A stretch of DNA of 64,000 bases from an uncultured Chloroflexia bacterium (GCA_963709505.1 CAVPXC010000010.1:1-64000); one strand, 5' to 3'; positions 1 to 64,000 are shown, counted from the first letter of the stretch. The notes: a model not told the origin generated them from the letters alone. Program-made: numbers and translations.

Positions 1-80
1 CCTTTGTTCAAAGTGTGCCAGAGTCATTCTGGCTGTCAGACATTAACAATTGTCAATTGTCAATTGTCAATTGACAATTG

Positions 81-710
81 TTAATGATCGAGCGTATCGG
101 CAGCGCAGCGTATCATCAGTGTTGATGATGTTGCGCCGGGATCTTGATGGCCGATGCTGCGTTCGCCCAGGTAGCTGGCGCGGCCTTTTGTCGCCAGCAT
201 GGGAATCGTCGCCTTCATGCCCTGTTCGGCGGCGGCGGCTCCGGCTTCCAGGATCTCGTGCAGGCTGGCGCCGCCGTCTACCTTGCTGCGCATGGCCTGG
301 CATGCGGGGGTCAAGGCATCAACCATCGTCTTTTCACCGGTGGTCGCCTTGCCGCGTTGCTGAACGCCGGCCAGGCCGGCCTCGAAGGCCGCCACCAGAT
401 CAGCGTCAGCCAACTCGCTTTTGCCGTCGACCGTCATGCCGGCGCGCATGAAAAACGTACCGTAGAGCGGCCCGCCGGCCCCGCCCACTGTCGAGACGAG
501 GGTCATCCCTGCCGTCTTGAGGATCGTGCCAATGTCCTTGTCGGCGACCGTCGGCAGCTTCTCGACGACAGCGGCAAACCCGCGGTCCATGTTAGCGCCG
601 TGGTCGGCGTCGCCAATGGCCGAGTCCAGCCTGGTCAGGTAGTCTTTGTTCTCTGCAAGCACCTGGCGATAGCAGCGTAGCCAGGACAGGATTGCGTCTC
701 GTGTGATCAC
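81..710 (-). CDS. dhaL: dihydroxyacetone kinase, ADP-binding subunit DhaL
   Basis: 209 aa ORF with a typical DhaL helical domain (LTRLDSAIGDADHGANM motif), immediately downstream of dhaK in the same orientation. Confidence 0.8.
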   Translation of the reverse strand: MITRDAILSWLRCYRQVLAENKDYLTRLDSAIGDADHGANMDRGFAAVVEKLPTVADKDIGTILKTAGMTLVSTVGGAGGPLYGTFFMRAGMTVDGKSELADADLVAAFEAGLAGVQQRGKATTGEKTMVDALTPACQAMRSKVDGGASLHEILEAGAAAAEQGMKATIPMLATKGRASYLGERSIGHQDPGATSSTLMIRCAADTLDH

Positions 711-764
711 TGGTTGCCTCTTTAATTGTCAATTGACAATTGTCAATTGACAATTGTCAATTAC

Positions 765-1766
765 TCAGATGCCCCAGCGCAAGCCAGGCGTCTTCACCGG
801 CGCATCCCACAGGCTGAGCAGGTCGTCGTCGGCCTTGAGCAGGGTGATGGAGCAGCCAGCCATTTCGAGGGAGGTGATGTAGTTGCCGACCAGGCAGCGC
901 ACGATGCTGACGCCGTGGGCCATGCAGATCTCGGCCAGCTTGCGGTAGACGATGTAGAGCTCGATCTGCGGCGTGCCGCCCATGCCGTTGACCATGGCAA
1001 TGACCCGGTCGCCCTTTTCGAAGGGCAAGTCCGCCAGGATGGGCAGGGTCAACATTTCGGTGATCTCGTCCGCGCTCTTCAGCTCCATGCGGGTGCGGCC
1101 AGGCTCGCCGTGGATGCCAACGCCAATCTCCATCTGGTCTTCGGGCAGGTCGAACGTCGGTTGGCCGGCGTGTGGCACGGTGCAGGAGGTGAGCGCCATG
1201 CCCATGCTGCGGCCCCAGCCGTTGACCTTGCGGCACAGATCGGCCACTTCCTGCAGGTTGCGGCCTTGCTCGGCGGCCGCTCCGCAGATCTTTTCGGCCA
1301 ACACCGTGGTGCCTACACCGCGGCGTCCGGCCGTCCAGGTGCTGTTCTGCACGGCAACGTCGTCGTCGATCACGACCGCGACCACGTCGATGCCCTCGGC
1401 CATGGCCATATCGGCCGCCATCTCGAAGTTCATCACGTCGCCGGTGTAGTTCTTGACGATATGCAGCACGCCCGCGCCGCCGTTGACGGCCTTGGTGGCC
1501 TCCAGCATCTGGTCAGGCGTCGGCGACGTGAAGACGGCGCCGGGGCAGGCGCCGTCGAGCATGCCCATACCGACAAAGCCGCCGTGCATCGGCTCATGGC
1601 CGCTGCCGCCGCCGGAGATCACGGCCACCTTGCCCTGCACCGGCGCATCTGCGCGCACGACGTAGGCGGGGTCGAAATGGACGCGAACCAGGTCCCCGTG
1701 AGCCAGGGCGATGCCCATCAGCTCTTCTTTGACGACATCGGCAGGATTGTTGATCAGTTTTTTCAT
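765..1766 (-). CDS. dhaK: dihydroxyacetone kinase, DhaK subunit
   Basis: 333 aa with the DhaK signature (GGGSGHEP, active-site His region), co-oriented with glpF and dhaL. Confidence 0.85.
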
Positions 1767-1854
1767 GACATTCTCTCCAGACTTAACATTACGACCTGTT
1801 AAAGACAGATAGCAGCCCCAGCCAAAACGCTGGGGCTGCTCAAGACTAGTGCTA

Positions 1855-2565
1855 TTACGCAGCGGGAATTACGGCTCCGGCCAACAGTGCGGCGATTACG
1901 GCGCCGATGATGGGGCCGACTACCGGGATCCAGGAGTAACCCCAGTCGCTGCTGCCTTTACCCGGGATGGGCAGGATGGCATGCGCGATGCGGGGGCTGA
2001 GGTCACGGGCCGGGTTGATGGCATAGCCCGTGGTACCGCCTAGGGCCAAGCCGATCACCAACACGGCCAGCGCTACGGTGTAAGGGCCGGGCAGGGACCA
2101 AACGGCGGGGATCGCCAGGATGGCGAACATCAGCACAAAGGTGCCGATGATTTCAGAGATCAGGTTCATGAGCGTGTTGCGGATGGCCGGGCCGGTGGAG
2201 AAGACAGCCAGCTTGAGGCCGGGGTCTGAGGTTGCCGCCCAGTGAGGCTGATAGTGCAGCCAAACCAGGACAGCGCCGAGGAACGCGCCGACGAACTCGC
2301 CGACCAGGTAATAGGGAACTTCCGCCAAAGGCGTCTTGCCGGCGACGAGGAGACCAATCGTGACGGCGGGGTTCAGGTGTGCGCCGCTGCCCATTGCGAC
2401 AGCTGAGTATGCACCCACGAACACCGCAAAAGCCCATGCCGTGGTGATAACGATCCAGCCGGAGTTGTTGCCCTTGGTCTTGCCGAGCAACACGTTGGCG
2501 ACGACGCCGTCGCCCAACAGGATCAGCAACATCGTGCCGATAGTCTCGGCGATGAGAATCTGCAT
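1855..2565 (-). CDS. glpF: glycerol uptake facilitator (MIP/aquaporin family)
   Basis: 236 aa, six predicted TM helices, two NPA boxes (HLNPAVT and NPARD). Confidence 0.85.
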
Positions 2566-3113
2566 GTTCTATTCCTCCTTGAATAGATCGTCTTGCAAGC
2601 AAGAGGTGTTGAAATACGACAATGATGCGGTCGGACGTTAGATGAATGGGACGAAAGCGGTTGGGCGAGACACCTCCTTTCATTAGCCGCAAATGCCAAC
2701 GGCAACGAGTTACGTTCGCCGACGAGATGCCCGAAGAGCGAGAATGAAGAAGCAGTACTATTCGAAGTTGAAGAGCTGTCGCTGGGAAGGGGAGCGCCTG
2801 GTTGCCACCCAGGCGAGCGGCATGTACCATTCAACTTTGAATGAAGCCCGCTGCGATTATAGAACTTTACCACAAAGTTCACAAACTTGCAAATACAATC
2901 ACTGCGCAATTATGGCGCAAATTGATTGGCTTGTTTGCTTGTTTAGCACCGTGGCGTTGCTCGCTCAGAGCAGTGCGTGTTATCGTTCTCAGGTACGCAC
3001 ACCATTGCATTATACTCTGAAGTGCGCCGTCTGGACATGATTTAAATCATATTGTGCAAGGCAAAACAAACTTTCTTGGCATTTCTGCCGAAACTCGGCA
3101 TGGCTTCCCGGGG

Positions 3114-3512
3114 TTATTCGAAGCTGGGCATGAGCTTGATGGCGGCTTCCATCGTAGCGATGCCGGCTTGCGAGCCCTTCAGCGCATTGAGCAACGGCTG
3201 ACCCTGTTGTCTGACCTTCGGGCTGGTGCTCTCGCTGATGACGATGGTAGCGCCTTTGCGCAGCACAATGTCGTTGTCCGCCTGGGCAAGAGCCTGCAAC
3301 AGGGCCGGCATCGCTACATCGCCAACGTGGGCCAGCGTATGGGCAGCCGCGAAGCGCACGCCGTGGTCATTATCCCGCAAAGCCTCTACCAGCACATCGA
3401 TCCCTTGGGCTGACGGCGCCTCGCGCACGAAGTGAATGCCTTCCTCGCGCTCGGCCTCCGAAAGCCGGGTGTTCTGAATAACGGCAATAGCTTGTTCGGT
3501 GGTTTGAATCAT
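3114..3512 (-). CDS. HEAT-repeat (PBS-lyase-like) protein
   Basis: 132 aa with repeated DxxVRxxAAxALgxiG-like HEAT motifs; divergent from manC. Confidence 0.5.
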   Translation of the reverse strand: MIQTTEQAIAVIQNTRLSEAEREEGIHFVREAPSAQGIDVLVEALRDNDHGVRFAAAHTLAHVGDVAMPALLQALAQADNDIVLRKGATIVISESTSPKVRQQGQPLLNALKGSQAGIATMEAAIKLMPSFE

Positions 3513-3958
3513 GGGAGTGCCTTTCTGTGTGTCGCCTGTATGGGGTAAGCGGTCTGGAAACTGCTTGAAAAGGTTGCATCCATCTCACGCACCAGGTCCC
3601 GCAGTTCCGGACTTCGGGGCTGCCGCTGGTGTGCGCTGGACTTCTTGTGGCTTTGCGTAAGCTTCGTGAACTTTTTCTTGCACCGTATTATACCCAAGGC
3701 ACGGTGGGAAAGAAGAATCGCGCGTGCTCAGATGGAGTTACTTGGTAACAATCCAGGTCCAAAAACAGGGTACATTCAATTTCGGTGGCAGCAAACCCTT
3801 CGAATATCGGACCCTTCGGGTTTCCCTGGTCGAACCCGCTACTTGATAAAGTGCGACATCTGCTCGAACCGGCAACTGGGTTAAGGACGAGAAACCCGAA
3901 GGGTCTGCAAAACACCCTATTCTTGCTCGCATGTTCCTGTTGCGTTATACTAGCCTAC

Positions 3959-5071: not shown

Positions 5072-5096
5072 CTCTATCCAACTGTGCTGGGCGTCG

Positions 5097-5168
5097 TAGG
5101 GGCGGGCCTTGCGTCCGCCCGCGTGTGTTACGCGCGTCGCACGGGCGGACGCAAGGCCCGCCCCTACA
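5097..5168. repeat. REP doublet (inverted pair of GTAGGGGCGGGCCTTGCGTCCGCCC-type palindromic units)
   Basis: Two inverted copies of a ~25-nt imperfect palindrome. The same family recurs at 5399, 11597 and 46903. Confidence 0.7.
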
Positions 5169-5804: not shown

Positions 5805-5907
5805 GGTTGGGTTTGGTGGAGGGTGAAGGGTGGAGAGTGGAGAGTGAAGAGTGGAGAGAAAACGACGGACTGTGTTTACTGTTAACTGCCTACTGTCTAC
5901 TGCCCAC

Positions 5908-6831
5908 TCAACGTAAGACCAGAGCGATCCCTAGCAACGTCACCAGTGCGCCGGCGATTTCGTTGGACTGCGGGATCTCGCCGAGAAATACCACACCCAG
6001 CAGGATGCCCAGCGTGACCTCCTGCGTTGCGATCAGGTTCGCCGTGGTGGCATGAGTATGGCGCAGAGCGGCGTTGTAGAGCGTGTGACCGATGCCCAAA
6101 GGGATGACGCCGAGGGCGATGACCGCCAGGATCGGCACGAGCGTGTAGCCCTCAGGCGTAAAGTTGGCGACCGCTGTGGGCAGGGCCCACAGCGCAGCCA
6201 GAGCATAGACCGCCACGGCGTAGGTAAAGAGCGGATAGCGGGATCGCTGCCCGCGTCCGGCCACCGAGTACAGGCCGAAGGTGATCGCCGAGACCAATGC
6301 CAGGAGGTCGCCCAAGGCCATCGCACTGTTCCAACGCGGCTCGAAGCCGGCCAGGATGGCAACGCCCAGCACAGCGACTAGCACGCCGCCCCATTTGCGC
6401 CGGGGGATCGGCTCTTTCAGAAACCAGGCCGAGAACAGGGTGACGAAGATGGGCGCGGTGTAGACGATAGCCAGCGAGTGGGCAATGGTCGTGTAGCTGA
6501 GCGACGCGATATAGGTCAGAAAATGCAGCGCGGCGATCAGGCCAAAAACCAGGAAGAGGGGACCGCTCTGGCGGGAGAGCTTGAACGGTTCCTTGCGCAG
6601 CCGCATCAGCGCGAAGATAAAGAGTGCTGCCACCGCCAGCCGGCCGGCCGTCTTCTCGTAAGGGCTAAGCGGATCGGCCCAGCGCACCAATACCGGGCTG
6701 GTGGCAAAGAATAGCACTGCCAGCGCGGCTAGCCACGTCCCGCGCTGCTGCTCGTGCCTCGATCCGCCCGGTGCTTCGACCGCAGGGGTGCTCTCGCTGT
6801 CAGCTGTATTGCTTAAGCCATCGCCGCTCAA
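5908..6831 (-). CDS. EamA/DMT-family transporter
   Basis: 307 aa, ten predicted TM helices, duplicated EamA-like halves. Confidence 0.7.
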   Translation of the reverse strand: MSGDGLSNTADSESTPAVEAPGGSRHEQQRGTWLAALAVLFFATSPVLVRWADPLSPYEKTAGRLAVAALFIFALMRLRKEPFKLSRQSGPLFLVFGLIAALHFLTYIASLSYTTIAHSLAIVYTAPIFVTLFSAWFLKEPIPRRKWGGVLVAVLGVAILAGFEPRWNSAMALGDLLALVSAITFGLYSVAGRGQRSRYPLFTYAVAVYALAALWALPTAVANFTPEGYTLVPILAVIALGVIPLGIGHTLYNAALRHTHATTANLIATQEVTLGILLGVVFLGEIPQSNEIAGALVTLLGIALVLR

Positions 6832-13867: not shown

Positions 13868-14058
13868 GTTCTTGAACCGTCGTAGATTGGACCTCTCTTC
13901 TGAAAGAGGTCCCGTCTACTCTACGTGGTCGTTTTTTACAACAGACACTCAGGTGCGGGGCACACACCAGGGGTGAAAACAGCGGGGCTCGGTCGGAGAC
14001 CGGCCCGAGCAACTGGGACGCAACCGCCGGGCTCGGCGGAGACCGGCCCGAGCAACTC

Positions 14059-15231: not shown

Positions 15232-15271
15232 GTAGGGCAAATCCCGTCCGGGATTTGCCCTACATTTAATC
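15232..15271. repeat. perfect 17-bp-stem palindrome AAATGTAGGGCAAATCCCGTCCGGGATTTGCCCTACATTT
   Basis: Sits between the permease stop and the URO-D start. The core GCAAATCCCGTCCGGGATTTGC recurs at 19715-19792. Confidence 0.7.
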
Positions 15272-16558: not shown

Positions 16559-16603
16559 ATCGAGTCACCTCATTCGCAATTGACAATTGACAATTGACAA
16601 TTG

Positions 16604-17908
16604 TTACGATCCCCATCCTTTGGTAAACACCGGCCCCTCTTGGGCGGCAGGCTTGCGCAGCCGATAAATCCAGCGGATGATCTCCGGCGCGGCGATGAAG
16701 ACGATCACCAAGGCGATCACGATCGTGACGATGTCCACCGGGATCCGCGCGACCGATTGCATGCGGGTGGCGCCGTTTTTCAACGTGCCAAACAGCAGGG
16801 CGGCGAACAGCACGCCCACGGGATGGTTCTTACCCAGCAGCGCCAGGGCAATGGCGTCGAAGCCCATGCCGGCGGAAAAGCCCACGCCTACCCAGCGGTC
16901 CACCGCGAGCGTCTGCACCATCCCGGCCGTGCCCGCCAGCCCACCGCTGATGAGCATGATGACAATCCACAGTCGCTTTACATTTATACCGCTATACCTG
17001 GCGGCCTTGGGATTGGCGCCGACCATGCGGATTTGAAAACCCAGCGTGGATCGATACAAGATCCACCAGATCAGCCATACCGTGAAAAGCGCCAGAAAGA
17101 AGCCGGCATGGAAACGGTTGCCTGGCGTGGTGAAGAACCTTGGAATCCAGGCTGTAGCCAGGACAGGCGGGGTGACTGGCACATCGGGCCGAGCCATGGG
17201 ACCGCCCACTTTGAGCAGCCAGGCACTCAGGCTGATGGCGATCCAGTTCATCATGATGGAGTTGATGACCTCGTGCGCACCCGTGTAGGCTTTTAGCGCG
17301 CCCACGATCCCTGCCCAAATAGCGCCGCCAGCGATCCCCGCCAGCATCGCCAGCGGCAGATGGATGATCCACGGCAAGCCGGTGACCTTGAAGCCCACGT
17401 AGACCGCGCAGAGCGCCCCGACCAGCATCTGGCCCTCGCCGCCGATATTAAACAGCCCCCCTTGGAATGCGAACGCGACCGCCAGGCCGGCAAAAATATA
17501 GGGTACGGACTGGGTCAAGCTTTCGGATAAGGGGACCAAGGCAATGGCCAACTGCTGGGTGCCTTCACCGCTCAGCATAGCGCCGATGCCTCGAATGATG
17601 CCGCCGATGTTCAGCGATCCGTTGAGCATGGCGCCATAGGCCGTGGCCACCGTCTGTACCGTGATCTTCAACGCACCCATAGGGTCGTCGAAGAAGTGCA
17701 GCCAGGCGTTGACGACGTCTTTATCGGTCACCAGAATCAGAATGGCGCCGATGACCAAGGCGGTGAAGACGGCCAAGACTGGATAGAGGATCGCATCGAG
17801 CACCCGTGAACGCTTGGGTTTCGACTGGCCGCTGGCGGCTTGAGGAGTGGCAACAGGTACGGTCGATTCGGACATCCTAGTCCTCCTGGTTGATAAAAAC
17901 CTGAGCAA
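16604..17908 (-). CDS. ABC transporter permease (YufP/NupP-like)
   Basis: 434 aa multi-TM permease. Confidence 0.75.
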   Translation of the reverse strand: MLRFLSTRRTRMSESTVPVATPQAASGQSKPKRSRVLDAILYPVLAVFTALVIGAILILVTDKDVVNAWLHFFDDPMGALKITVQTVATAYGAMLNGSLNIGGIIRGIGAMLSGEGTQQLAIALVPLSESLTQSVPYIFAGLAVAFAFQGGLFNIGGEGQMLVGALCAVYVGFKVTGLPWIIHLPLAMLAGIAGGAIWAGIVGALKAYTGAHEVINSIMMNWIAISLSAWLLKVGGPMARPDVPVTPPVLATAWIPRFFTTPGNRFHAGFFLALFTVWLIWWILYRSTLGFQIRMVGANPKAARYSGINVKRLWIVIMLISGGLAGTAGMVQTLAVDRWVGVGFSAGMGFDAIALALLGKNHPVGVLFAALLFGTLKNGATRMQSVARIPVDIVTIVIALVIVFIAAPEIIRWIYRLRKPAAQEGPVFTKGWGS

Positions 17909-19698: not shown

Positions 19699-19821
19699 GT
19701 AGGCAAATCCCATCCGGGACTCACGTTGCCAATTTGCCCGCCGGATCTCCGGAACGCACATCCGCGACATGGAACCCGGACGGGATTTGCGCTTCAGCTT
19801 TAGGTATAGAAGAGATTGGCC

Positions 19822-28447: not shown

Positions 28448-28476
28448 TTCACACGCTGTCAAAGGAAGTGGTGGCA

Positions 28477-28712: not shown

Positions 28713-28724
28713 GTTGCTGAAAGG

Positions 28725-35844: not shown

Positions 35845-35944
35845 TCTACTTATTGCATTCCCGCGCTACCAAACGCCAGAACAACCGCTCAATGAAGAGA
35901 AACAGCGAGACCATCCAGAAGTACATCGCTGCCCAATCCAAACT

Positions 35945-36960: not shown

Positions 36961-36975
36961 CCTGGAGGGTGTATG

Positions 36976-37320
36976 AAAAACCAGGCCGCTATTCGAGAAC
37001 GCTACCTTCGCGATCCTCTGCCGGTGCGTCTTGGTGGATTGGCTGCGAATCTGGCCCGAGTTAAGTCTATTTCCAACCACCCAAAGCATAGCGCGATAGT
37101 CGAAGGTCTTATCGATGAAAGCAAATACTTTGTCGAGTGGGCGGCTCCCGATGCAGAAGTAGATCGTCAAGCGGAGTTGGTCGCAATGCAGGTTCAACTG
37201 GCTCTCTGGCAATTGAATTGGTCAAAGATTTGGCCAGACCCGGCGGCGCGAGCTTTAGTGGCTGATCAGGCGAAAGAATGGTCGGATCAGGTACTTGCCA
37301 TGTCTGGTCTGCTGGACTAG
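36976..37320 (+). CDS. hypothetical helical protein (114 aa)
   Basis: MKNQAAIRERYLRDPLPVRLGGLAANLARV... no family recognised; 23 nt upstream of aroC. Confidence 0.35.
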   Translation, partial: KNQAAIRERYLRDPLPVRLGGLAANLARVKSISNHPKHSAIVEGLIDESKYFVEWAAPDAEVDRQAELVAMQVQLALWQLNWSKIWPDPAARALVADQAKEWSDQVLAMSGLLD

Positions 37321-38580: not shown

Positions 38581-39502
38581 TCAGCGACGAAGTCGTTGGG
38601 CGCGGAGTTGATCCAGGCTGGCGCTGGCCGATTTTCGAACCTTCGCCTTGGGGTCGGACAGGGCAGCCTCGAGGGCTTTCATGGCGTCGGCCCCGCCCAG
38701 GCGTCCCAGCGCCTGCGCGGCCGCCTCGCGCACCATGGCAGAATCGTCGCTCGCGAGTTCGCTTGGCGATCTCCGGAACCGCCCGTCGATCTCCCAGCTC
38801 CGCCAGGGCCAGCAACGCTGCGCTACGTGCCTGTCCCTGCCGATGGGTAAGTGCATCTAGCAGGGGCGCTAGGCCGGCAGGCCCACCAAAACGTCCCAAC
38901 CAATGGGCCGCGCGGGCGGCATCTGCAGGGTCATTGCCGTAGAGCCGCTCGATCCATGCGCTGACGTCGAGATCGATGTCGGCTCCGAAACGCACGGCGT
39001 CCTTGTCGACCTCCGCAAAACCGGCGTAGATGTCGGCGAAGGCCGGATCGCCAGGGGTTTTCTGTTCAGATTGGCCCCGGTCAGTGCCTTCGGGATGCTC
39101 TGCCAGAGCCGAACGAGGATGGGCCGCAGGCCGCGTCAGCGTGAGTGCAAACTGTGTTGCCGAGCGCACTTGGCCACCGGCGGCCCGCACCAATCCGGCC
39201 AGCCCGCGGTCATTGGTGACGACCGTGATCTGCGTGGGGGTCTCGCTCTTCTCCACCATCCGGACGATCACCTGATCCGCCTGGACGCCGGGTGGTGCGA
39301 AGCGCACGGTCACGCCGCCGCCCGAGAGATTCCACAAAGGCGCGGGGCCAGGACCGCTGTCAAAGACCACCGTTACCTGTCGTCGGCCGTCAGCGCAATA
39401 CATGCGCAGCCGCAACACCAGCTGATGTTCGTCGTCAGCCTGAGCCAAGTCGATGTCAGGCATTGCGCCGATGAGGTTGTGGCCGTCGATGAGGAGGGGC
39501 AT
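38581..39502 (-). CDS. NYN-domain (YacP-like PIN RNase fold) protein fused to C-terminal HEAT repeats, apparent frameshift near 38860
   Basis: N-terminal MPLLIDGHNLIG NYN signature; HEAT repeats continue in ORF 38581-38856. Confidence 0.55.
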
Positions 39503-39580
39503 GGGAAGTGGCAGGTGGCAAGTGGCAGAGTTGCAGGTGTCGGAGTGTCAAGGTGTCAGGTGTCGGAGTTCTGAGGTAAT
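39497..39580. repeat. hexamer repeat block (GGCAGGTGGCAAGTGGCAG ... GGTGTCGGAG units)
   Basis: Same family as 28246-28362. Confidence 0.65.
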
Positions 39581-42001: not shown

Positions 42002-42058
42002 GAGATCAGGATTATAGCGTACGAGAACACTCGCGGGCAAGCTGCGAAGTGAACCGGG

Positions 42059-42139
42059 GTGTATTTCAAGTTGGGGGCAGACCCTTCGGGTTTTCCGCAA
42101 ACCCGAAGGGTCTGCCCCCAACTTGAAATACACCCCCTG
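42059..42139. repeat. ~80-bp perfect palindrome (37-bp stem) in the murJ / peptidase divergent intergenic region
   Basis: ggggtgtatttcaagttgggggcagacccttcgggttttccgcaaacccgaagggtctgcccccaacttgaaatacaccccc; the motif ACCCGAAGGGTCTGC also appears at 3889-3905 with its inverse at 3809-3823. Confidence 0.8.
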
Positions 42140-49105: not shown

Positions 49106-50822
49106 TTACTTTGCCGGCTCGATCACCAGCAACGAGGTCGGATCCTCCAGCGCCACCTTCGGCTGGTCGGTGATCCACCCAGTGAAGCGATCGGTGCGGT
49201 AAGCCTGGGTTGCCTGCGCGTAGAACGGGATGATGTAGGCCACATCGCGATGCAGGATTTCCTGCATCTTCCAGACGAGTTCCTTGCGCTTCGCCGGGTC
49301 AAGTGCGGTGGCCTGTTGCTTGTAAAGGTCGTCGAATTCGGGGTTGGAGTAGCCGGTTTCGTTGTTGCCGGTAGGAATCTCATCGGTGAGATGCACGCTC
49401 AGCAGGAAGCCGGGGTCGGGATCCGAACCCCAGCCCCAGATCAGGACGTCGTAGTCGAAAGTGGGGCAGCACACAGAGGTCAGCGTGTCGGGGTCGAGCG
49501 CCTGGGGCTCCAGCTTCACGCCGATTTGGGTCCAGGTTTCGGCCAACAGCTCGGCGATGCGCGGCCCGCGTACGTTGTCGCTGGGCCAGAAAAGGCGAAA
49601 GATCAGTGGATTGGATCCGTCCGGCATCTGGCGGACACCGTCGCCATCCGTGTCCTTGTAGCCGGCATCATCCAGCATGCGGTTGGCCTCGGCGATGTCG
49701 AAGGCGTAGTCCTGGATCGTGTTGTTGTACCACACGCCCAGGCCGTCGGGGATGAGGGTGAGGCCGGGCGTGCCCAGCCCTAGCAGCACCACGTCGATGA
49801 TTTTCTGTTTGTCGGTGGCATGAGCTAGAGCCTGGCGCACCGCGCGGTCACCTAGGGCTGGGTGACCAGTACATTGACCATCGGGTGGGCATTTGTCCGG
49901 TGGAACCTGGTTGAGGATGATGTCGGTGACATCCGGCGACAGCGGCGCGCCGATCACCATTTGGATGTCCTTGGCGTTGCGCAGGGTGGGCACAGCCGTC
50001 GTGGGCATCTCGGTGATCATGTCTACTTGCCCGGTCACCAGCGCCTGCACCAAGGCGTCCTGGTTCTGGAACGTTTGGAGTACCACTTCGTCCACCTTGG
50101 GTGGGGTTGCGGGATGGTCCTTGATGGCGGCCAGGTGGATGAACTCGCCCTGCTTGTACTCCAGCAGCTTGAAGGGACCACTGCCGATCATCTCTTTGTT
50201 TTCGAAAGCGGCCGCGCCCTCTGGCGTGTCGTGCTCGGCCCAGATGTGCTCGGGCAGGATGTACATGAAGTAGAGCTGGCTCTCCATGTTGGGGATCGGC
50301 TCGGTCAAGGGTGATCACCACCGTTTGGTCGTCCGGCGCTTCGACGCTCTCGAAGTACTTGGTGTACACCGGCATGTAGGGAAAGTCTTCGTGCTTCCCG
50401 TAGAAATTGTAGCTGAAGACGACATCCTTGGCCGTTACGGCCTGACCGTCGTGCCATTTGAAATCGTCGCGCAGGGTGAAGGTCCAGATCTTGCCGTCCG
50501 GGGAGACCTCCCAGCTTTTGGCCAGGTCGGGCGAGAAGGTGTTGTCGAGGTTGAGATCGAACATCGAGCTGTAGGCCAGCTCGAACGTAGAGTAGGCCTC
50601 GGCGAGGGTGGCTGAGCCGGGGTTGAGAGTATCCGGGCTACCGCCCCAGCCGATACGCACGACGGCTTTGTCTTGCGGCGGAGCGGCTGGGGGCTCGCTC
50701 GTAGCCGGGGCTTCGACCCCAGTCGCCTGGGGCGCGGGTGCGGGCGCGGCGCCTCCGCAGGCCGTCGCCAGCAGCGCCACGATCAGCAAAACGCCAACCC
50801 AAAACGGTGTGCGGGCAGTCAT
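49106..50822 (-). CDS. peptide/nickel ABC substrate-binding lipoprotein (family 5), apparent frameshift near 50300
   Basis: Signal/lipobox (LLATACGG); SBP family-5 fold split between ORFs 49848-50822 and 49106-50308. Confidence 0.7.
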
Positions 50823-50885: not shown

Positions 50886-51000
50886 GTGTCAATCGAGGGT
50901 GACAGGTGGGAAGTTGCAGGTGGCAAATTGCAAGTCGCAAATTCTCTCATATTCCGTACCTGCGACTTGCAACCTGCCACCTGCAACCTGCCACCTGTCA
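50886..51000. repeat. hexamer palindromic repeat block (GCAGGTGGCAAATTGCAAG ... CTTGCAACCTGCCACCTGC)
   Basis: Inverted halves; same family as 28246 and 39497. Confidence 0.7.
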
Positions 51001-51766
51001 CTGCCGGCCCAGGTCGAATTCGGCCAGCACTGGGTAGTGGTCTGACGCATGGTGCACGGCTGCCGGCTCGGTGACGACGTCGCACCGCCGCAGATGGCCG
51101 ATCAGGGAAGCGTCTGCGAAGATGTAGTCCAGACGGACGCCTGGGTCGGGTGGAGGGAGTGTATAGCCGGTGTCATTCGGGTGCAACGTCCGGTAGCAGT
51201 CTGACGAAGCCGGCGGATTGCATCTGGCGCACTGCCAGCCGCAGCTTGCCGTTGCCGTGTAGCCAGAAACGCAGGGCCGCTGCCCTGTACAGCCTTTCGA
51301 GGCGCATCGGATCGTGCGGGGCCACGGCGTTGAAATCGCCCATGACTAAACATGGTTGGCCTGAGACTGGCCGCGTCTGGCGGAGCATGGTCCACACCTC
51401 CCAGGCCCGCCAGAGCTCGCGGCCGATACTGTAGAGCGGGATCGTGTGGATGCCGAAGACGTGCAGCGGGCCCACGGTCGGATGGCGGAGCGTGGCTTCG
51501 AGGATCACATGGTGCACCGGCGGATACGGATGATGGCTGCAGGCCTCCACGATTGGCCAGCGGCTGAGCAGCGCTATGTGGCGGGTTGAGTTGCCTTCGA
51601 CGACTGCGGCCTGCAGCGACAGCCTGGCTGCCAGCCGCTCCGCCAAGCCGTTCTGATACACCTCTTGCAGCACGGCTATGTCGGGCCGGACTGTCTCGAG
51701 CACGTCGGCGATGAGTGGCTCGCGACCCACGCCGCCGTCCAGGATGTTGTAGGTGAGGACACGCAT
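50998..51766 (-). CDS. endonuclease/exonuclease/phosphatase (EEP) family protein, apparent frameshift near 51180
   Basis: N-terminal MRVLTYNILDGG ... and the C-terminal SDHYPVLAEF motif lie in two frames. Confidence 0.6.
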
Positions 51767-51769: not shown

Positions 51770-52640
51770 CTATGCGCCCAGCCCAGCGGTGGCTTCACGC
51801 CAAGCTCGCTTGCTCTGGCGGAGAGTGTGCTGCTCGCGGATCTCCCGCACGGTCTCTAGTTTTTCGTCAACTGCTGCCTCCAGCCACAGCCGGCCCTTTT
51901 CTGCGGTTCCTTGACGCCCATCGCCGTAGATGCCGGTCACCGTGTCGTCGCTCCACGGCGGGTTGGCGATCAGGCGGCCGCTTTCGACCCAGTCCATGGC
52001 GTAGTTGGCCGTCGTGACGAAATCAATCTCAGTCGTGGCGCGGTCCATGTGCACTAGATCGGGCCGCAGGTGCAGCACGTAACTGGTCTCCAGCTCGCCG
52101 CCGTGCCCCATGCCGCCGAGCGCAGTCTGCCGATAGCGCTGCAAAGCCGGGCCGGTGGTGTGCAGCCATTCGGTGGCGATGAACCGGCGCGGATGCCGCT
52201 CGCCGGCCAGTTTGACGACGTTGACCAGGAAAGAGTGGTTGCCGCCGTGGCCGTTGGAGAAGAGGATCGTTTGGGCGCCCAGCGCGGCCAGCCGGTCGAC
52301 GATGGCGAGGAAGAAGTCCTCGAACACCCGACCACCCAAGTTGAGGGTGCCCGGAAACTCGCGCGTGTGAGTGCTGACGCCGTACGGCCAGGCTGGCAGG
52401 CACCACACCTCGTCCGGCGCGCGCGCCGCCAACCCATCGGCGATGGCCTGGACGATCAGGGTATCGGTGCTGAGTGGCAGGTGGTAGCCGTGTTGCTCGG
52501 TGTGGCCGGTGCTAATGACTACAACGCGCTGGGCGAGATCAGCGGGCCACCGTGGAGACAGTCGAGGTTGGCATGGTGTCTCGATGAGGACTACATTGCT
52601 TGGGCCGGTCTCCGACCGAGCCTCCGCTTCCGATCGCATT
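51770..52640 (-). CDS. creatininase-family amidohydrolase; start uncertain
   Basis: VVISTGHTEQHGYHLPLSTDT metal-binding motif and full fold. Confidence 0.6.
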
Positions 52641-52941: not shown

Positions 52942-53110
52942 GTCACCAGGGGCACGGTCGGAGACCGGCCCGAGCAGCATGTGAAGTCACCAGGGGCACG
53001 GTCGGAGACCGGCCCGAGCAGCATGTGAGTCACCAGGGGCACGGTCGGAGACCGGCCCGAGCAGCATGTGAGTCACCAGGGGCACGGTCGGAGACCGGCC
53101 CGAGCAGTAC
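52942..53110. repeat. ~3.9 copies of a 43-bp tandem repeat (GTCACCAGGGGCACGGTCGGAGACCGGCCCGAGCAGCATGTGA)
   Basis: Read directly; the core GGTCGGAGACCGGCCCGAGCA also occurs twice at 13985-14060. Confidence 0.85.
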
Positions 53111-53132: not shown

Positions 53133-55130
53133 TCAGAGCAGATACCAGTCCAAGAAGCGCTCCATCGTCGCATAGAAGTGCTGGAGATTGCCGATCTGCA
53201 GGAAGCCGTGGCCTTCGCCTTCGTAGACGAAAAACTCGAAGGTCTTGCCCTCGCGCTTCAGCGCTTCAACCAACTGCTCGCTCTGCTTGGGGTGGACGCG
53301 CTCGTCGTCGGCGCCGTGCAAAATCAGGAGCGGCGCCTGGATGGCGGCCACGTCGTGGATCGGCGAGCCGGCGCGGTAGCCGGCGTGGTTGGCGGCGGGG
53401 TGCCCCATCTGCCGTTCCAGGTCCTCGCGGCCGATTCGGTCACCCTGCGCCCACGAGGCCAGGATGTCGCAATCCCCGAACTTGGCCACGCCGCAGGCGA
53501 AGCGGTGCTGTGGATCGCGCGCCAGCGCTAGCAGCGCCAGGTAGCTTCCATAGCTCGCGCCGTAGATGCCCAGCCGTTGGCCGTCCACCCAATCTAAACC
53601 GGTCAGGTGATCGGCCGCGGCCAGCATGTCGTCGGTGTCCACGATGCCCCAGGCGCCGTGCAGTGCGTGTTGATGCGCTAAGCCATAGCCCGTGCTGCCG
53701 CGGAAGTTGGGCGTCAACACGGCATAGCCCTTGGCGACCAGCCACTGCACCAGGATGTCCCATGTGCGAGCGTATTCGTCGGTCGGCCCACCGTGCGGAT
53801 AGACGATGGCCGGGCAGGGTTTTTCGCTTGAGGCGGTGGGCGGACGGAACAGCAGGGCCGGGATGCTGGCACCGTGCGTGCTGGGATAGGTCACGAATTC
53901 GGGCTGAACCAGGCCGGCGCCGGCTAAGGCCGGCGGCATGGACGCCGTCAACGGCCGCGCCGCGCCCGTCGTCGCATCGACCTGGTAGATGTCGGGCGGT
54001 TCAGTAGGGCTCTCGAACTCCACGGTCAGCCAGCGCCCGTCCGGGCTCCACTGCGGCCGGCTGTGCCAGCCGGGTCCGTCCCTCAATACGGTCTCTTGGC
54101 CCGAAGCTACGTCGAGCAGACAGAGGTCGCTCGTGCCTTGGCGGTTGACGACCAAGGCGATTGTTAGGCCGTCGGGGCGCCAGGCGAAGTCTTGGATGTC
54201 GGCGTGGGTTTGGGTGAGCCCCTGAACCCCCTCCCCGGCCCTCCCCCTAGGAAGGGGAGGGGGGCTGTTGTGCATGCTGTCAAGGGGGGCACGAGCATCT
54301 TGGACCTCGCCGGCCTTTTCCTCAAGGGAGGGAGATAGAGACAGAATGTACAGCTCGCGCCAGCCGGTGCGGTTGGAGGTGAAGGCGATGGCTTTGCCGT
54401 CGGGCGACCAGCGGGGGTTTTTGTCCCAGACTGTGGCGGCGCCGGTGAGATGCGTGACCTGGCCACCGGCTGCCGGCACGATGCAAATCTCAGATCGGTT
54501 GAGATCCTCCTGCGGCTGGTAGACAAAGGCGATGAGGCTGCCGTCGGGCGACGGCTGCGGGTCGGAGACGTCGGCTTGGAAATGGGTCAGTGCTGCGGGC
54601 CAGGCGCCCTCTGGCGACGTGGCGCACAGGTTTTCGAACGTCCCCCGGCCGCTGAGGAAGTAGACGCGGCGTCCGTCCGGGCTGAAGATCGGGTTGGAAT
54701 CGCCGTGCTTGAAGTCGGTCAGCCGGCGGGCGCGGCCGGTCTCGACGTCCACTTTCCAAATGTCTTCTTGCGCCGCATAGACGAGCGATCGGCTATCCGG
54801 GCTCCAGCGCGGGGCTTCGTCCGACCAGAAGGTCTGCGCGGGGCGGTCGAAGGTCAGCCGTTGCGGCCAAGCAGCCGGCGCGCAGCCGTCGACAGGCAAA
54901 ACGTACAGATCGTTGTTGCCGTCCCGTTGCCAGACGAAGGCCACTAGCCGGCCATCCGGCGACAACGCGTGATGGATAATCAAAGGAACGCCTGTCAGCA
55001 GGTCGAGGCTCCACGGCGCGGGCATCTTTCGATCCGGCCGCGCCTGCGCCGGCCAGCCGTTGCGTTCCTCTTTCAGGATTGTTGCCTTCATGCGTTTCTC
55101 AACACCTCCTCCGGCATTAACAATTGTCAA
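53133..55130 (-). CDS. S9-family serine peptidase with N-terminal beta-propeller (TolB-like) domain
   Basis: GASYGSY nucleophile elbow, Asp/His downstream, WD40-like propeller repeats. Contains an in-frame G-rich palindromic insertion at ~54228-54272. Confidence 0.8.
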   Translation of the reverse strand: MTIVNAGGGVEKRMKATILKEERNGWPAQARPDRKMPAPWSLDLLTGVPLIIHHALSPDGRLVAFVWQRDGNNDLYVLPVDGCAPAAWPQRLTFDRPAQTFWSDEAPRWSPDSRSLVYAAQEDIWKVDVETGRARRLTDFKHGDSNPIFSPDGRRVYFLSGRGTFENLCATSPEGAWPAALTHFQADVSDPQPSPDGSLIAFVYQPQEDLNRSEICIVPAAGGQVTHLTGAATVWDKNPRWSPDGKAIAFTSNRTGWRELYILSLSPSLEEKAGEVQDARAPLDSMHNSPPPLPRGRAGEGVQGLTQTHADIQDFAWRPDGLTIALVVNRQGTSDLCLLDVASGQETVLRDGPGWHSRPQWSPDGRWLTVEFESPTEPPDIYQVDATTGAARPLTASMPPALAGAGLVQPEFVTYPSTHGASIPALLFRPPTASSEKPCPAIVYPHGGPTDEYARTWDILVQWLVAKGYAVLTPNFRGSTGYGLAHQHALHGAWGIVDTDDMLAAADHLTGLDWVDGQRLGIYGASYGSYLALLALARDPQHRFACGVAKFGDCDILASWAQGDRIGREDLERQMGHPAANHAGYRAGSPIHDVAAIQAPLLILHGADDERVHPKQSEQLVEALKREGKTFEFFVYEGEGHGFLQIGNLQHFYATMERFLDWYLL

Positions 55131-55167
55131 TTGTCAATTGTCAATTGACAATTGTTAATGCCGGAGG
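55108..55167. repeat. palindrome CCTCCGGCATTAACAATTG(TCAATTG)nACAATTGTTAATGCCGGAGG
   Basis: At the S9 start / C45 stop junction; CAATTG family. Confidence 0.75.
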
Positions 55168-59925: not shown

Positions 59926-62900
59926 GGCTGCATTATAGCATAGTCGAGGTGAGATGAGCCATCCGGTTGGCTGTTTGTTCCTTCCACCACCGCGATCTCC
60001 TCCTCCGTCAGCCCGTAGAGCCGGTAGACGACTTGGTCGATCAGCCGGTCGGTGCGCTCGATCTGGGTGCGGACGGCGGCCAGCTCGCCTTGCAGCTCCT
60101 CCAGCGGCGCGAGATCGGCCGCGGGGTCGAAGACGGGGAGCTTGACGGCTTGGATCTTCTGCAAGGTGGATTTGGTCTTGCCGCCGGGGAAGGCGCCGGC
60201 ATGGGTGAACTGGTCCAGCACGGGCAGCGCATGGGTGTAGAAACGGGCCACGGACGGGTCGAGCTCGAAGCGATAGACCGGCGTCCAGGTGCGCAGGATG
60301 GTCTTGCCGTCCTCCTCGTAGAGCCAGGAAGCCCAGCCGTCGGCCGGGTTGCGGTGCTTGAGATGGGCTTGCAGCTCGACCCGCTGGCCGTCCAGCCTGA
60401 CCAACCGCAATCCCTCGACGTCGTGGCGGACGACGTCAAGACCGGAAGGGTCTGCCGAATGCACCAACTCCCCGTACTTGATCGCGTTGGCGAAGACCTT
60501 GGGCAAAGGCTGGCAGGCCGCGCCCCGATCCAGGAACTTGAAGGGGTCGAGCGCTTTCTCCAGCTTCTGGCGCTGTTTGTTCAGGTCGATCATCTGCTCG
60601 GCCAGGAAGGCCAGCAGGTCGTGGATTACGTCGGCGTGCTCCGGTTCCTGGCCGAGCTGGTGCTCGACGAAGCCCAGGACGCAGGCGTAGTCCCACTTGT
60701 CGCAGAACTGGCCGTATAGCCGCCGGCCCTTCTCGGCCAGACGTTCGCGCTCGTCGGTGGGGGTGGTGAAGACGATGCGTCTCAACGGCAAGTCCGCAAT
60801 TCGTTTACACTCACGTGATTATTCGTGCTAGTAAGACTAAATCGCCATTCGAGAAGTTGGCTATTCAAAAGCGCAAGTAGAAAATGCCCGGCCATTATAT
60901 CTGTCCCGACCACGAAGTACGAAATGCTATCGAAGCAATAGCTGGGAGTGCGGTAGGTGGAGAGAAAATCAACCTTCGCCAATTGTATCAGCGCGGCATT
61001 TCGTTGGTATCCGATTCGGTACAGCTTTGTGTGTTTGGCCCGCTCGCCTCCAACTGTCACTTAAAGCCGGCAAGATCCGGATGTTTCTCCACACCTTGAC
61101 GTGCCACGGGTTGAAACTCATAGCGCTGCACGTTTCCACCGCGCAACACCAGTGGACCTGCACTAGAAATCTCAGACAAGAGATGAACTTATAGTTGTTT
61201 CGTTGATTTCACCTTGAAAGGTCTGAAGTTGCTGCCCTAACGGCACGAACATCTCATCTGAAGTGAGCCGTAGTGCTAGAGCAAAGGACTCATTCGAGCT
61301 TAACACTGGGACAACCAAGTTGTGTGGGCTGAACCGAAGAATATCGAGCGAACTAGCCGCATACTGACCTGAAACCTCACTTAGCAGACCTCCAGGATGC
61401 GACAAAGGTGAGGCGTTTTCGAAATAATTGGCAGAAACCCGTAATACAAGTATGCAAGTAGGTAGTTTTGCTTCAGCATAATGACACGCGATCGATGGAT
61501 CGTCGTTTATTCTTCAAACACTTGATCCGTGTAATGCGTGATATGTCGCATGATGCTGACTTTCTCAGCGGAGGTATTCTCTGAATATCCGCGCAGGATC
61601 GAATCGGCAACAACTGTGACCGACGTAACTATCCTGACCGAGCCACAGCTGAAAGCGAGAACCACTGAACAGACTAATAAAGAGTCGACTACACCAGATC
61701 GGGTTGGCATAACCTGCCTTCAAGGTATCTCATACCATGGACGAGAACCTTTCACGCTCATTTTGATCAAGAACATCATACGGCGGATTCCCAATCACCG
61801 CATCGAACCCCGCCGCATCCCCTTGCAGCCGGCCGTGCGGATCGAAGAAGACCTCGGGGAACTCCAACTCCCAGTGGAAAAAGCGCCGCTCGGCCGCGAT
61901 CTGTTTGCCTTGGGCGATCAGCTCGTCCCAGCCCTGCAGGGCAAAGCCGCCGTGCAGCAGGTATTTGGCAAGCGGCTGCCACACGTCGTCGGCAATCGCC
62001 AGCCCAAAGTGGCGTGCGGTCCACAGGTCGGCCAGCAGGCGCGCCTTTTCGGTGGTCTTGCGCACGGTCTCGACGTAGATGCGCTCGGATTCGTGGACGT
62101 CGGCCAGGGTCTCGCTGCCCAGGCGCTCGATGTCGTCCATGAAACGGCTGGCGGTGCGCATCGACCCGGCGAAGGCGCTGTCGTCCAGCATGGAAAGCTG
62201 GCCGGCCTCGCGCAGCGCGGCCTCGTCGGCCTGCGCCTTGCGCGTCTTGCGCTTCTGGGCGGCGCTTGGCCCCGCGCTCGGCCCGGCAGCGTCCAACGGC
62301 AGGTCGGCGACGCGCGCGCCGATCAGCGAGTTGCCGCAGCGCAGGTGATGGTCCAGGAAGCTCAGCGGCTTGTTCTTGCTGACCGTCGCCAGCCACAGGC
62401 TCAGCTTGGCCAGCTCCACCGCCAGCGGGTTGAGGTCGACGCCGTAGATGCAGGCCTGCGCCACCCGCCGGCGCCAATAGGCGAGCTGGCTCTCGTCGCC
62501 TGCGGTCGGCCCTGCGGTGGAGGGTGGAGCGTGGAGAGTGGAGGGTGGACCCGAGGCCGGCTCCACGCTGGGTACGCCTTGCTCCACCAGGAAGCGGGCG
62601 ACGAACTCCGCGGCCGCCACCAGGAAATGGCCCGAACCCATCGCCGGATCCAGGATATTGACGTTCAGAACCGCCCGCGCCAGCTTCTCCGGGTCGCTCA
62701 CAGCGCCGCCTGCGTCGAGGAACGGCGCAGCCGCCTCGGCCAGCACCGGCCCCACCGTGTGCTCGACGATGTACTGCACGATGTAGTCGGGGGTGTAGTA
62801 GCTGCCGGTAGCCTTGCGCTCGCCTTTGTCCGTCACCAGATAAACCTGGCCAGGAAGAATGTCCGCTCCACTCTGACTCCCTCCCGCTCCGCTCTCGACT

Positions 62901-64000
62901 CCTCCCCCTCCGAGGGGGAGGGTTGGGGAGGGGGTTGGGGAAGCGGCTCAATCACTTCCTTCCCCTTAACCTTGCGCACCACCAGCGGCTCGCCCGCCAC
63001 GCGCACCTGGTATTCCAGCAGCCCCTCGTAGATGCTGCCCAGGTGGCGGATTTCCAGGTCGCGGTAGTCCACAACCTCGCGCGTGCCGGTTTTGGGATCG
63101 CGCGTGCGCGCCAGCAGGTCGATCGCCTTGCGCAGGTGCAGGTCGCCGACGCGGTGCTGCTCCAGGAAGGGATGGTTGGCCGGCTTGAACAGCCCGCCGT
63201 CGTAGGCCGGCACGCCCAGGTAGGGATCGCCGCCGTCGATCACGCGCCACAGCTCGGCCAGGCGCTGCCACAGGCTGGACATGCTGGGCGCGGCCGGTTG
63301 GCCGCTGTCGATCTCCTGGGCGATGCGCCGCTTGAGCGCCTGCAAGCTGTAGCTCTCGCGGTAGGTCGAGTTCTCCAGCACCGGCAACAGGTCGCGGTCC
63401 TCGGCGTAGAGGATGAACAGCAGCCGGTAGAGCACGATCAGGCTGTTGTCGTGGATGGCCCGCAGCGTGGTCTCGTCCGGCGTCAGGCCGTTGCCGGGGA
63501 AGTCGAGGAAGCCCTGGGCCAGGGCAGCCAACGCCTCGTAGACCTGGTCTTTCAGCCCGGCGCTGATGCCTTGCTGGTAGGCCAGGCTCTCGGCCAGCAC
63601 CAAATCCAGCCAGGCTGGCGCGCCATGGGCTGCGCTGTCGGGGAGGAAGGCCTCGCGGCGGAAGAAGAGCCAGAAATACTTGAACGCCTCGGCGTCGCCG
63701 GCCTCGATCAGCGCGGGCAGATCGACCTCGTAGTAGACGTCCAGCTTCTTGGAGGAGTCCTTGTGGTAAAGCTGCCACAGCCGGCCGTTGGTCAGCACGC
63801 CCCAGGCCAGCCCCGAATGGCGGATGTAGAAGTCGATCTGCAAGGCCGGGTTGGCGTGGAGGGTCTTGCTGCTATCGGCCGGGCCGCTGCGGTCCAGGGG
63901 CCGGTTCCACGCCTTGGCGTCGGCCACGGCCAGGGCGGCGGCCAGATCAGCCTCCGCGGCCGGGCGGTGCAGCGTCTGGATGGCGGTGCGCGTCGCCTCG
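59922..64000 (-). pseudogene. type IIG restriction-modification / PglX-like N6-adenine methyltransferase, disrupted (multiple frames), 5' end beyond window
   Basis: N-terminal/helical part (62833-64000+, open past the window edge). MTase core with GSYYTP and NPPY motifs (61730-62836). Low-GC TRD-like segment in broken frames (60792-61729; ...LLALLNSQLLEWRF...STNNHVSVNELR). C-terminal domain ending in the RLYGLTEEEIAVVEG hallmark (59922-60791). Confidence 0.6.
60792..61729 (-). other. low-GC (~48 % vs ~65 %) target-recognition-domain segment of the MTase gene
   Basis: Visible composition drop; ORF fragments 60782-61060, 61172-61405 and 61507-61710 lie in different frames. Confidence 0.6.

Follow-up and report, generated by a model that had tools for sequence, protein, structure and literature searches.

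Tandem arrays of seven-base-pair units, mostly in inverted pairs, in the operon spacers of an uncultured Chloroflexota bacterium

Introduction

What are the short repeats that lie between the genes of a 64,000-nucleotide stretch from an uncultured Chloroflexia bacterium (GCA_963709505.1 CAVPXC010000010.1:1-64000), and how might they have arisen there? This stretch, hereafter the window (64 kb, 62% GC), is a single piece of a larger genome. An original prediction made from its sequence alone distinguished six families of tandem or palindromic oligonucleotides. All the sequences it listed were found, at the positions given or a few bases away. Its grouping was not kept. Tandem arrays of 7-bp units account for families 1-4 together, as a single phenomenon, whereas families 5 and 6 have nothing to do with them and are palindromes resembling repetitive extragenic palindromes (REPs).

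Results

A single period of seven

Tandem tracts were called by Tandem Repeats Finder (TRF), with which an independent lag-match scan was concordant, and chance was controlled with 30 dinucleotide-preserving shuffles of the window. At one and the same score threshold, 15 strong short tandem tracts were found at period 7, and none at periods 4, 5, 6, 8, 10 or 11. The shuffles gave no period-7 tract. Tracts with periods of 9, 12, 18 and 21/42 were also present in the window, mostly as coding repeats or multiples of 7. According to TRF, the period-7 tracts comprise 3-7 copies at about 15 loci, and 14- and 21-bp super-periods are present in the arrays.

The heptamer units of the window are CAATTGW, GTGGAGA/GTGAAGA, AAGTGGC/AGGTGGC, GGTGATC, GCTGAAT, TACTGYC and GGTGTCR. 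Family 3 had been described as hexameric; its unit, AAGTGGC/AGGTGGC, is of 7 bp. Families 1-4 thus all share the period of 7, and their units intergrade. A single array of a relative (L125, 6148-6330) shows the gradation directly, from GGTGATC through GGAGAAT and GGTGAAT(T) to GGTGAAC, and families 2-4 are therefore mutational neighbours. Three arrays had been missed, GCTGAAT at 30165-30186, TACTGYC at 5877-5908 and GGTGTCR at 39521-39569, as had a degenerate tract of 21-bp period at 62863-62911 (TRF consensus CCGCTCCACTCTCGACTCCTC).

Arrays lie between genes of the same strand

In a gene map built from codon usage, 84% of the window is coding; the non-coding fraction is 17.7% (11.3 kb). Array bases were in non-coding DNA in 418 cases out of 523 (~80%). 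Forty-three spacers of at least 40 nt were counted, 12 of which are occupied, for a total of ~1.06 kb of the 11.3 kb, so that to call the intergenic space saturated was too strong. All occupied spacers separate genes of the same strand, none of the nine divergent or convergent spacers being filled (P=0.036). Typically, an array starts 0-12 nt past the upstream stop codon, or inside it, and ends near the next ribosome binding site (RBS). The proposed location at gene boundaries holds for these arrays and fails for those found inside aroE and a methylase open reading frame (ORF). As anticipated, the repeats generate artefactual ORFs (…QLSIVNCQLTIVN…, WRVESGEW).

The array-richest stretch is the aromatic amino-acid operon (28.8-38.4 kb), with genes for a chorismate mutase-prephenate dehydratase, two 3-deoxy-D-arabino-heptulosonate 7-phosphate (DAHP) synthases, tyrA, aroA, aroE and aroC. 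Nearly every intercistronic spacer there has its own, different heptamer hairpin. Numbering the arrays E1 to E15 along the window, E5 (28246-28362) is an inverted pair of AAGTGGC/AGGTGGC arrays upstream of the operon promoter, with arms of 45 nt that are 82% complementary (-68.7 kcal/mol, z -7.8). E6 (28719-28834) is a GGTGATC/GGTAATC pair in the 5' untranslated region, between an attenuator terminator and the RBS of the chorismate mutase-prephenate dehydratase gene (-49.6 kcal/mol, z -5.7). E7 (30165-30292) is a decayed pair, made of (GCTGAAT)x3 right after a stop codon and of CTCCGCA/CTCATCA/CTCTCCA units that extend into the DAHP synthase 1 RBS; its fold does not outdo that of shuffles (z -0.6). 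E8 (31324-31421), placed between the DAHP synthase genes, pairs GAATTGT/CAATTGG arrays over arms of 39 nt, 92% complementary (-65.4 kcal/mol, z -9.9). The GTGGAGA pair E9 (32469-32557) runs from within the DAHP synthase 2 stop codon to 9 nt short of the tyrA start, with arms of 32 nt, 97% complementary (-70.8 kcal/mol, z -10.6), and the GGTGGAG pair E10 (33470-33560) lies between tyrA and aroA (-68.5 kcal/mol, z -9.1). E11 (35505-35546, plus strand) consists of six CAATTGW units (42 nt) in frame within aroE, where they encode ...LTIDNCELSIVNS..., a hypervariable loop.

Outside the operon, four arrays are made of CAATTGW or CAATTGA. E1 (41-86; TRF period 7, 5.6 copies) is itself palindromic (-25 kcal/mol, z -8) and overlaps the stop codon of a dhaL-like gene (81-710, minus strand). 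E2 (722-763) takes up the whole dhaK-dhaL spacer, from the stop of the former (765) to the RBS and start of the latter (710). E4 (16572-16606), (CAATTGA)x4, separates two ABC-transporter permease genes, with the stop codon of the upstream one overlapped by the array and the start of the downstream one 14 nt away; it folds weakly. E14 (55108-55167) is palindromic with extra palindromic flanks (CCTCCGGCAT...ATGCCGGAGG). Situated between two minus-strand genes, it supplies the stop codon of the upstream one, and forms a loop-free hairpin (arms of 30 nt, 97% complementary; -44.4 kcal/mol, z -11.9). E1 and E14 have an identical 46-nt core. E13 (50899-51005), also between minus-strand genes, is a CAGGTGG/CAAGTTG inverted pair (arms of 41 nt, 90% complementary; -81.4 kcal/mol, z -11.6).

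Single-arm arrays make up another group. E3 (5812-5908), between two minus-strand genes, joins GGTGGAG/AGTGAAG units (5815-5858) to TACTGYC units (5877-5908), next to a start codon at 5804; its hairpin is not significant (z -1.5). E12 (39497-39580), AAGTGGC/AGGTGGC followed by GGTGTCR, lies at the start codon (39502) of a minus-strand yacP/NYN-like gene and has no hairpin (z +0.2). In E3, E12 and the decayed E7 (3/3), the C-rich strand is the mRNA sense and adjoins a start codon.

E15 (62516-62911, minus strand) comprises a GGTGGAG array (62516-62549) and the degenerate 21-bp-period tract, both inside a frameshifted ORF of the N6-methylase/restriction type (61730-63999, minus strand) whose frame break adjoins the second tract. 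Judged from the sequence, this break could be repeat-driven phase variation or, equally likely, a sequencing error: one of the tracts does stand at the break, while frameshifts unrelated to repeats also occur in the window. Compared with intact orthologues, four essential aro genes and at least two others carry single frameshifts (29424-29429, ~30480, ~32765 and ~38300-38350; also 49106-50822 and 61730-63999). These are most likely indel errors, as of a long-read assembly, rather than marks of pseudogenes, and exact unit counts and single mismatches in arrays are therefore not to be over-read.

Most arrays form long hairpins

For 13 of the 17 arrays, a partner in inverted orientation lies no more than 150 nt away. 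The long hairpins that had been foreseen do form from these inverted arms, with stems of 30-45 bp, folding energies of -44 to -81 kcal/mol and z of about -6 to -12. The order of unit variants is mirrored between the arms in E8 (P=0.015) and E13 (P=0.016). Mirrored order is absent in E5, E6 and E10, whose arms evolved independently, and we rejected the notion that arms always derive from one inverted duplication. In E6, the right arm is homogeneous and the left arm diversified.

Hairpins of the window, of L121-L131 and of L001-L120 were pooled for base composition. The 5' arm was G-rich in 23 of 28 skewed heptamer-periodic hairpins, versus 13 of 26 non-periodic ones. This G-first asymmetry of heptamer hairpins reads alike on both strands.

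Orthologous spacers carry other units, or none

By AroA similarity, the nearest homologues belong to uncultured Anaerolineae/Caldilineales metagenome-assembled genomes (MAGs) of the Chloroflexota (92, 84 and 78% identity), Caldilinea being at 62%. Assemblies of relatives were drawn from ENA, NCBI, JGI and Logan. Five independent ones (L121-L125) share the aro-operon order with the window, L126-L128 are short-read (Logan) contigs of the closest relative (92%), and L129-L131 were compared at the dhaK/dhaL locus, L131 being the 79% relative.

In L121 and L123-L125, the orthologous aro-operon spacers hold heptamer-periodic inverted arrays with other units. The arrays are thus neither confined to the window nor products of its assembly, the two outcomes that had been named as fatal to the prediction. 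A TGAATTG hairpin of L121 is homologous to E8, with an identical loop (GGATCCGGATTCCGG) and paired changes in both arms. CGTAACN units are used in L123-L125, and form a hairpin at the E6 position in L123 and L124. L125 also has GGTGAAC, including a 276-bp array of 39 units across the aroA stop. Between species, orthologous arrays differ in both length and units.

Comparison with related strains for presence or absence, as had been suggested, gave one clear case. In the closest relative (L126-L128) the tyrA-aroA site is empty, reading TGA-AGAGTATCCC-ATG with a spacer of only 10 nt, while in the window a 101-nt hairpin (E10) separates TGA from AGAGTATCCC exactly and is not flanked by a target-site duplication. 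These contigs begin inside the arm equivalent to E9 and stop inside the family-5 hairpin; L126 starts in the right arm, with CTCCACC units. In the window the dhaK-dhaL spacer holds CAATTGW (E2); L129 has there a hairpin of the GGCAGGT type, L131 one of CGTAACN units, and in L130 the spacer is empty. Past dhaL, at the E1 position, the CAATTGT array is kept in L131.

Within aroE, in-frame arrays occupy the same loop in all six genomes, with a different unit in each (window 35505-35546; L121 5630-5648; L123 12187-12225; L124 14162-14194; L125 12567-12585). The peptide repeats of this loop resemble SPLTINH/SPFTINH.

The aro-operon spacers of L123, L124 and L125 are also insertion hot spots, with PIN/antitoxin pairs and a hydrolase. 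L125 also has a large serine recombinase there (1141-3954), flanked by about five CGTAAC half-hairpins on the left and six on the right, as if inserted into a hairpin loop.

A trait of whole genomes

Array density was 0.23 tracts/kb in the window, versus 0.016/kb in 371 kb around 80 DhaL-homologue loci. No array was found in 21 kb of Caldilinea, and one weak tract in Litorilinea. Given this contrast, the arrays are the trait of a subclade. They are a property of whole genomes, those of this subclade and scattered ones of many phyla, and are nearly absent from Caldilinea, Litorilinea and the majority of homologous loci.

Outside the subclade, the exact 27-mer (CAATTGT)3CAATTG was found in at least 120 stretches of species-representative genomes. 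Among the matches listed, carriers include Bacteroidota, Anaerolineae, Caldilineae, Ardenticatenia, cyanobacteria, Planctomycetota, Oscillospiraceae, Patescibacteria, Calditrichia and Geobacter relatives. Culturable carriers among them are Bacteroides stercorirosoris DSM 26884, Haloimpatiens lingqiaonensis KCTC 15321, Citrifermentans bremense R1 and Nostoc sp. NIES-4103. Nostoc/Anabaena and the Prolixibacteraceae MAG CAYYPH01 count, with this clade and L125-type genomes, as array-rich. In 856 kb of CAATTGT-carrying stretches from other phyla, period 7 accounted for 290 tracts and any other period for at most 31. About half of these tracts were made of other units, ~98 distinct ones, often abutting the CAATTG array. 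No flank or terminus is common to the 131 CAATTG arrays, whose ends decay into one-substitution variants. Only about 15% of arrays in this sample have an inverted partner, versus 13/17 in the window, where the hairpin habit is therefore much stronger.

Discussion

Slippage and fold-back copying as the probable origin

Families 1-4 are probably heptanucleotide simple sequence repeats, of the class known as short tandemly repeated repetitive (STRR) sequences or long simple sequence repeats (LSSRs), made by slippage and fold-back copying and carried along as co-transcribed, dispensable by-products. Arrays would be born and resized by slipped-strand mispairing, in steps of 7 nt. Point mutation would create unit variants, which further slippage would spread, producing the 14- and 21-bp super-periods. 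Reverse copying of an array, by fold-back or template switching, would give an inverted pair whose arms then evolve partly independently. Arrays would be tolerated wherever frame is of no consequence. Their growth would stop at a constraint, an upstream stop codon on one side and a downstream RBS on the other, and they would survive within genes only if in frame inside a tolerant loop, as in aroE. The super-periods, the graded units and the contrast in E6 between a homogeneous right and a diversified left arm support growth and homogenisation by slippage. Because they lie inside operons, the arrays would be transcribed as mRNA stems of 30-45 bp. Their probable role there is that of RNase III or stability elements; the arrays are dispensable, however, and look like tolerated by-products, not designed signals.

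Several observations weigh against this account. Slippage alone leaves unexplained why amplification is exclusively by 7 bp, and why AT-rich CAATTGW arrays (29% GC) should occupy six sites of a 62% GC window. One unit family is reused across the spacers of a genome while orthologous spacers differ between genomes; copying from locus to locus, or an activity specific to the lineage, could account for such reuse. The identical core of E1 and E14 points the same way, and the G-rich 5' arm of heptamer hairpins is not accounted for. Between L121 and L122, which are 99.86% identical, no array changed in length; arrays are therefore not hypermutable on that scale. Finally, we infer transcription, processing and the mutational steps rather than observe them.

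Possible selected RNA elements

The hairpins might instead be RNA elements under selection, punctuating polycistronic mRNAs as RNase III sites, 3' stabilisers or insulators between cistrons. We give this possibility a low probability, though a higher one than any other alternative. It would fit with the restriction of arrays to spacers between same-strand genes, with very stable stems long enough for RNase III, with the upkeep of a hairpin in the same spacers across genomes despite sequence change (including the paired arm changes between E8 and L121), and with the G-first asymmetry. The RNase III hairpins of T7 early mRNA, a functional analogue only, are likewise long stems between cistrons of one transcript, but the window stems have no conserved internal-loop architecture; the REP and bacterial interspersed mosaic element (BIME) stabilisers of E. 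coli would be another parallel.

Selection on the RNA should leave a signature that was not seen. Sense and antisense folding and G.U counts, compared in nine heptamer hairpins and six other palindromes, gave no consistent asymmetry: three hairpins had stem mismatches favouring sense-strand G.U, two favoured antisense, and the rest were equal. E3, E7 and E12 are single-armed or decayed, E10 is missing from the closest relative, and arm complementarity drifts down to 82%. The stems have no U-tract and no Rfam family; a search yielded 0 matches at gathering score and, below threshold, only generic pre-miRNA hairpins. None of the functions that had been suggested for the repeats could be demonstrated. 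Intrinsic terminators were considered separately and rejected: array hairpins were absent among terminator-like hits, and their stems, unlike terminators, are not directly followed by a T-run (U-tract in the RNA).

Possible mobile elements

Another reading, unlikely and a little behind the preceding one, takes the hairpins as non-autonomous mobile elements, miniature inverted-repeat transposable elements (MITEs) or REPINs, copied by a transposase encoded elsewhere, with the 7-bp period an incidental feature of their arms. CAATTGW stands at six sites of the window and GTGGAGA at five, E1 and E14 share their core, CGTAAC hairpins of L123-L125 keep a loop-proximal GTAACCCGGA in 22 copies, and the window holds a TnpB-like pseudogene. 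The different families found in orthologous spacers of different genomes, and the clean tyrA-aroA difference, would also follow from transposition. That empty site is, however, the sole one and shows no target-site duplication, unlike a MITE insertion. Array lengths are continuous, units intergrade, arrays of different units abut, and many arrays are single-armed. The 131 CAATTG arrays are without conserved termini or flanks, and arrays are rare in viral contigs. Pfam scans of 20 window ORFs revealed no Y1 or REP-associated tyrosine transposase (RAYT), this 64-kb window being a part of the genome only. Without conserved flanks or target-site duplication, a mobile element with defined ends was rejected.

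REPs, BIMEs and RAYT-mobilised REPINs resemble the arrays in being intergenic, hairpin-forming, genome-specific and retained at orthologous positions. They can be transcribed along with their neighbours and influence the stability of the mRNA. REPs are, however, fixed palindromes of 20-40 nt, tagged by GTAG or CGTC and lacking any tandem period inside, whereas the heptamer arrays vary in length and have no conserved head. Only two palindromes of the window, at 5096-5167 and 15232-15263, are REP-shaped.

A possible trans-acting activity, possible bound proteins, and artefacts

The arrays could be the footprint of a trans-acting activity, either an unusual property of replication or repair enzymes or a dedicated enzyme, that adds 7-nt tandem and fold-back copies. 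Though we hold it unlikely, slightly more so than mobility, it would explain why many unrelated units are co-amplified in the same genomes, why the trait is present in this Caldilineales subclade and absent from Caldilinea and Litorilinea, why an identical AT-rich CAATTGT array is found in a 62% GC genome and in many phyla, and why the asymmetry of the hairpins is strand-symmetric and G-first. Lineages may have gained and lost such an activity, possibly via horizontal transfer.

It is very improbable that the arrays serve as multivalent sites for a protein reading 7 nt, be it on RNA (a cold-shock-domain or S1 protein, for instance) or on DNA (a nucleoid protein). The strict period would suit such a protein, as would the single-arm arrays directly upstream of start codons and C-rich in mRNA sense (3/3), and binding to RNA has been proposed for TAACTGA repeats (PMC4679880). 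No single specificity, however, fits the many unrelated units per genome, most arrays here are locked in duplex stems, and the units are not enriched for Shine-Dalgarno-like words. Artefacts of assembly or sequencing can be dismissed, the probable indel errors of the window and the frameshifts in its aro genes notwithstanding, given equivalent arrays at orthologous positions in independent assemblies and the exact 27-mer in so many other stretches.

Three further candidates were tried and rejected. An origin of the units from Shine-Dalgarno or anti-Shine-Dalgarno sequences was suggested by GGTGATC, GGAGGGT and CAGGTGG, which look complementary to the 16S 3' tail; against shuffled units of matched composition the resemblance was not significant, with 3/8 such units in the window versus 1.7 expected (P=0.23), 4/18 versus 2.6 in relatives and 9/98 versus 10 in other phyla. 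Under the same control for composition, stop triplets are not enriched in the units, as they would be in three-frame stop blocks. As for a phage origin, two units searched in 2.9 million viral contigs had only 4 and 6 matches.

Relation to known heptamer repeats

The density and diversity of the repeats had been regarded as unusual, but an intergenic excess of heptamers, with inverted pairs, is known in cyanobacteria, Xanthomonas and Beggiatoaceae (PMC4692102, PMC4679880). As cited in these two papers, heptanucleotide repeats are the most abundant long simple sequence repeats in many bacteria, with an excess among bacterial simple sequence repeats at large in a 2007 survey (Mrazek 2007). The first report, of three heptanucleotides in tandem, came from the cyanobacterium Calothrix PCC 7601. 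In Nostoc and Xanthomonas, intergenic DNA has a strong excess of such repeats (PMC4679880, PMC4692102). Some are paired in inverted orientation, and related species have them at the same intergenic positions, in differing lengths and sequences (PMC4692102). Neither PMC4679880 nor PMC4692102 reports an established function, and the only account given of the number seven is a polymerase slippage or footprint hypothesis.

The window arrays share with cyanobacterial STRRs and Mrazek's LSSRs the intergenic 7-bp tandem units, the several unit families per genome, the period-7 excess and the sporadic distribution. Three features of LSSRs are present, namely head-to-tail 7-bp copies beyond chance, an excess of period 7, seen likewise in array-bearing loci of related and unrelated genomes, and a mostly intergenic position. 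The host differs, an uncultured Caldilineales-like bacterium with 62% GC, and so do the units (CAATTGW, GTGGAGA, GTGGCAR, GGTGATC). STRR1-3 of heterocystous cyanobacteria have the units CCCCAGT, TTGGTCA and CAACAGT. The arrays do not match STRRs in the strict sense, their units being different and their host belonging to the Chloroflexota by aroA similarity. The window is a new lineage of the known heptamer-repeat class, with an unusually high hairpin-forming share.

Two other systems are close. TAACTGA, a unit common to marine Beggiatoaceae, cyanobacteria and Bacteroidetes (MacGregor 2015, PMC4679880), likewise forms intergenic direct repeats near start codons and is shared by distant phyla. 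CAATTGA is two substitutions away from it, and intermediates, CAACTGT and TCAGTTG among them, abut CAATTGT arrays in L022 and L097. The Beggiatoaceae genome, however, has essentially one heptamer, with one inverted repeat found (PMC4679880), unlike the window with its many units, mostly in inverted pairs. The GGGAATC and GGGGAYT repeats of Xanthomonas and Nostoc are also intergenic heptamer arrays, some inverted, between the same genes across species (Rehm et al. 2015, PMC4692102). Their units form G-quadruplexes (PMC4692102), whereas the window units, whose G runs go no further than GG or GGG, form duplex stems instead.

To this class the window adds a GC-rich, non-cyanobacterial lineage whose arrays are dense and mostly hairpin-forming. 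Close relatives that fill the same spacers differently, an empty site and array-poor outgroups together offer the contrast needed for phylogenetic profiling of the factor responsible. There are practical consequences as well. The arrays break short-read assemblies, as in the de Bruijn contigs L126-L128, with their ends in a heptamer arm and a family-5 palindrome; they inflate ORF calls, and can be in frame within genes such as aroE.

Other repeats and neighbouring features

Families 5 and 6 and the core of a minisatellite are ordinary REP-like palindromes, unrelated to the arrays. Family 5 consists of two tandem small hairpins, TGGACCTTTC-loop-GAGAAAGGTCCA, after aroA (34886-34955), with a third copy at 13886-13912; it is not heptameric. 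A homologous, diverged hairpin follows aroA in L121 and closes contigs L126-L128. Family 6, in two copies and not heptameric either, is a REP-like palindrome at 15232-15263 (GTAGGGCAAATCCCG-TCCGGGATTTGCCCTAC), with related arms at 19703-19790. The palindrome at 5096-5167 (GTAG...CTAC) has the same REP shape. Searches with the exact patterns of families 5 and 6 gave no matches at other loci.

The minisatellite (52942-53107) has a non-heptameric period of 43 bp and 3.8 copies, its core being a dispersed 16-mer, GGCCGGTCTCCGACCG, found also at 52603-52618 and 13990-14005 of the window and in L123-L125 and L002. Caldilineales-like genomes and an Anaerolinea MAG conserve this 16-mer, often as tandem copies. 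In a divergent spacer (42056-42136) stands a perfect inverted repeat of 38 nt with a loop of 5 nt (-81 kcal/mol); it is non-heptameric and present in a single copy in the window.

Upstream of the aro operon, a probable leader-peptide transcription attenuator spans 28420-28716. It comprises a promoter (TTGACA-17-TACCAT, 28420-28448), a leader ORF of 58 codons containing WRGFYFYYSF (28477-28653), an antiterminator in which 11 nt at 28621-28631 pair with 28685-28695, and a terminator stem followed by T6 (28685-28716). This leader, rich in aromatic residues, is also conserved in L123, L124 and Litorilinea (L220). Further downstream, a TnpB/OrfB_IS605-like gene, split into three frames, is inserted between aroE and aroC (35834-37320).

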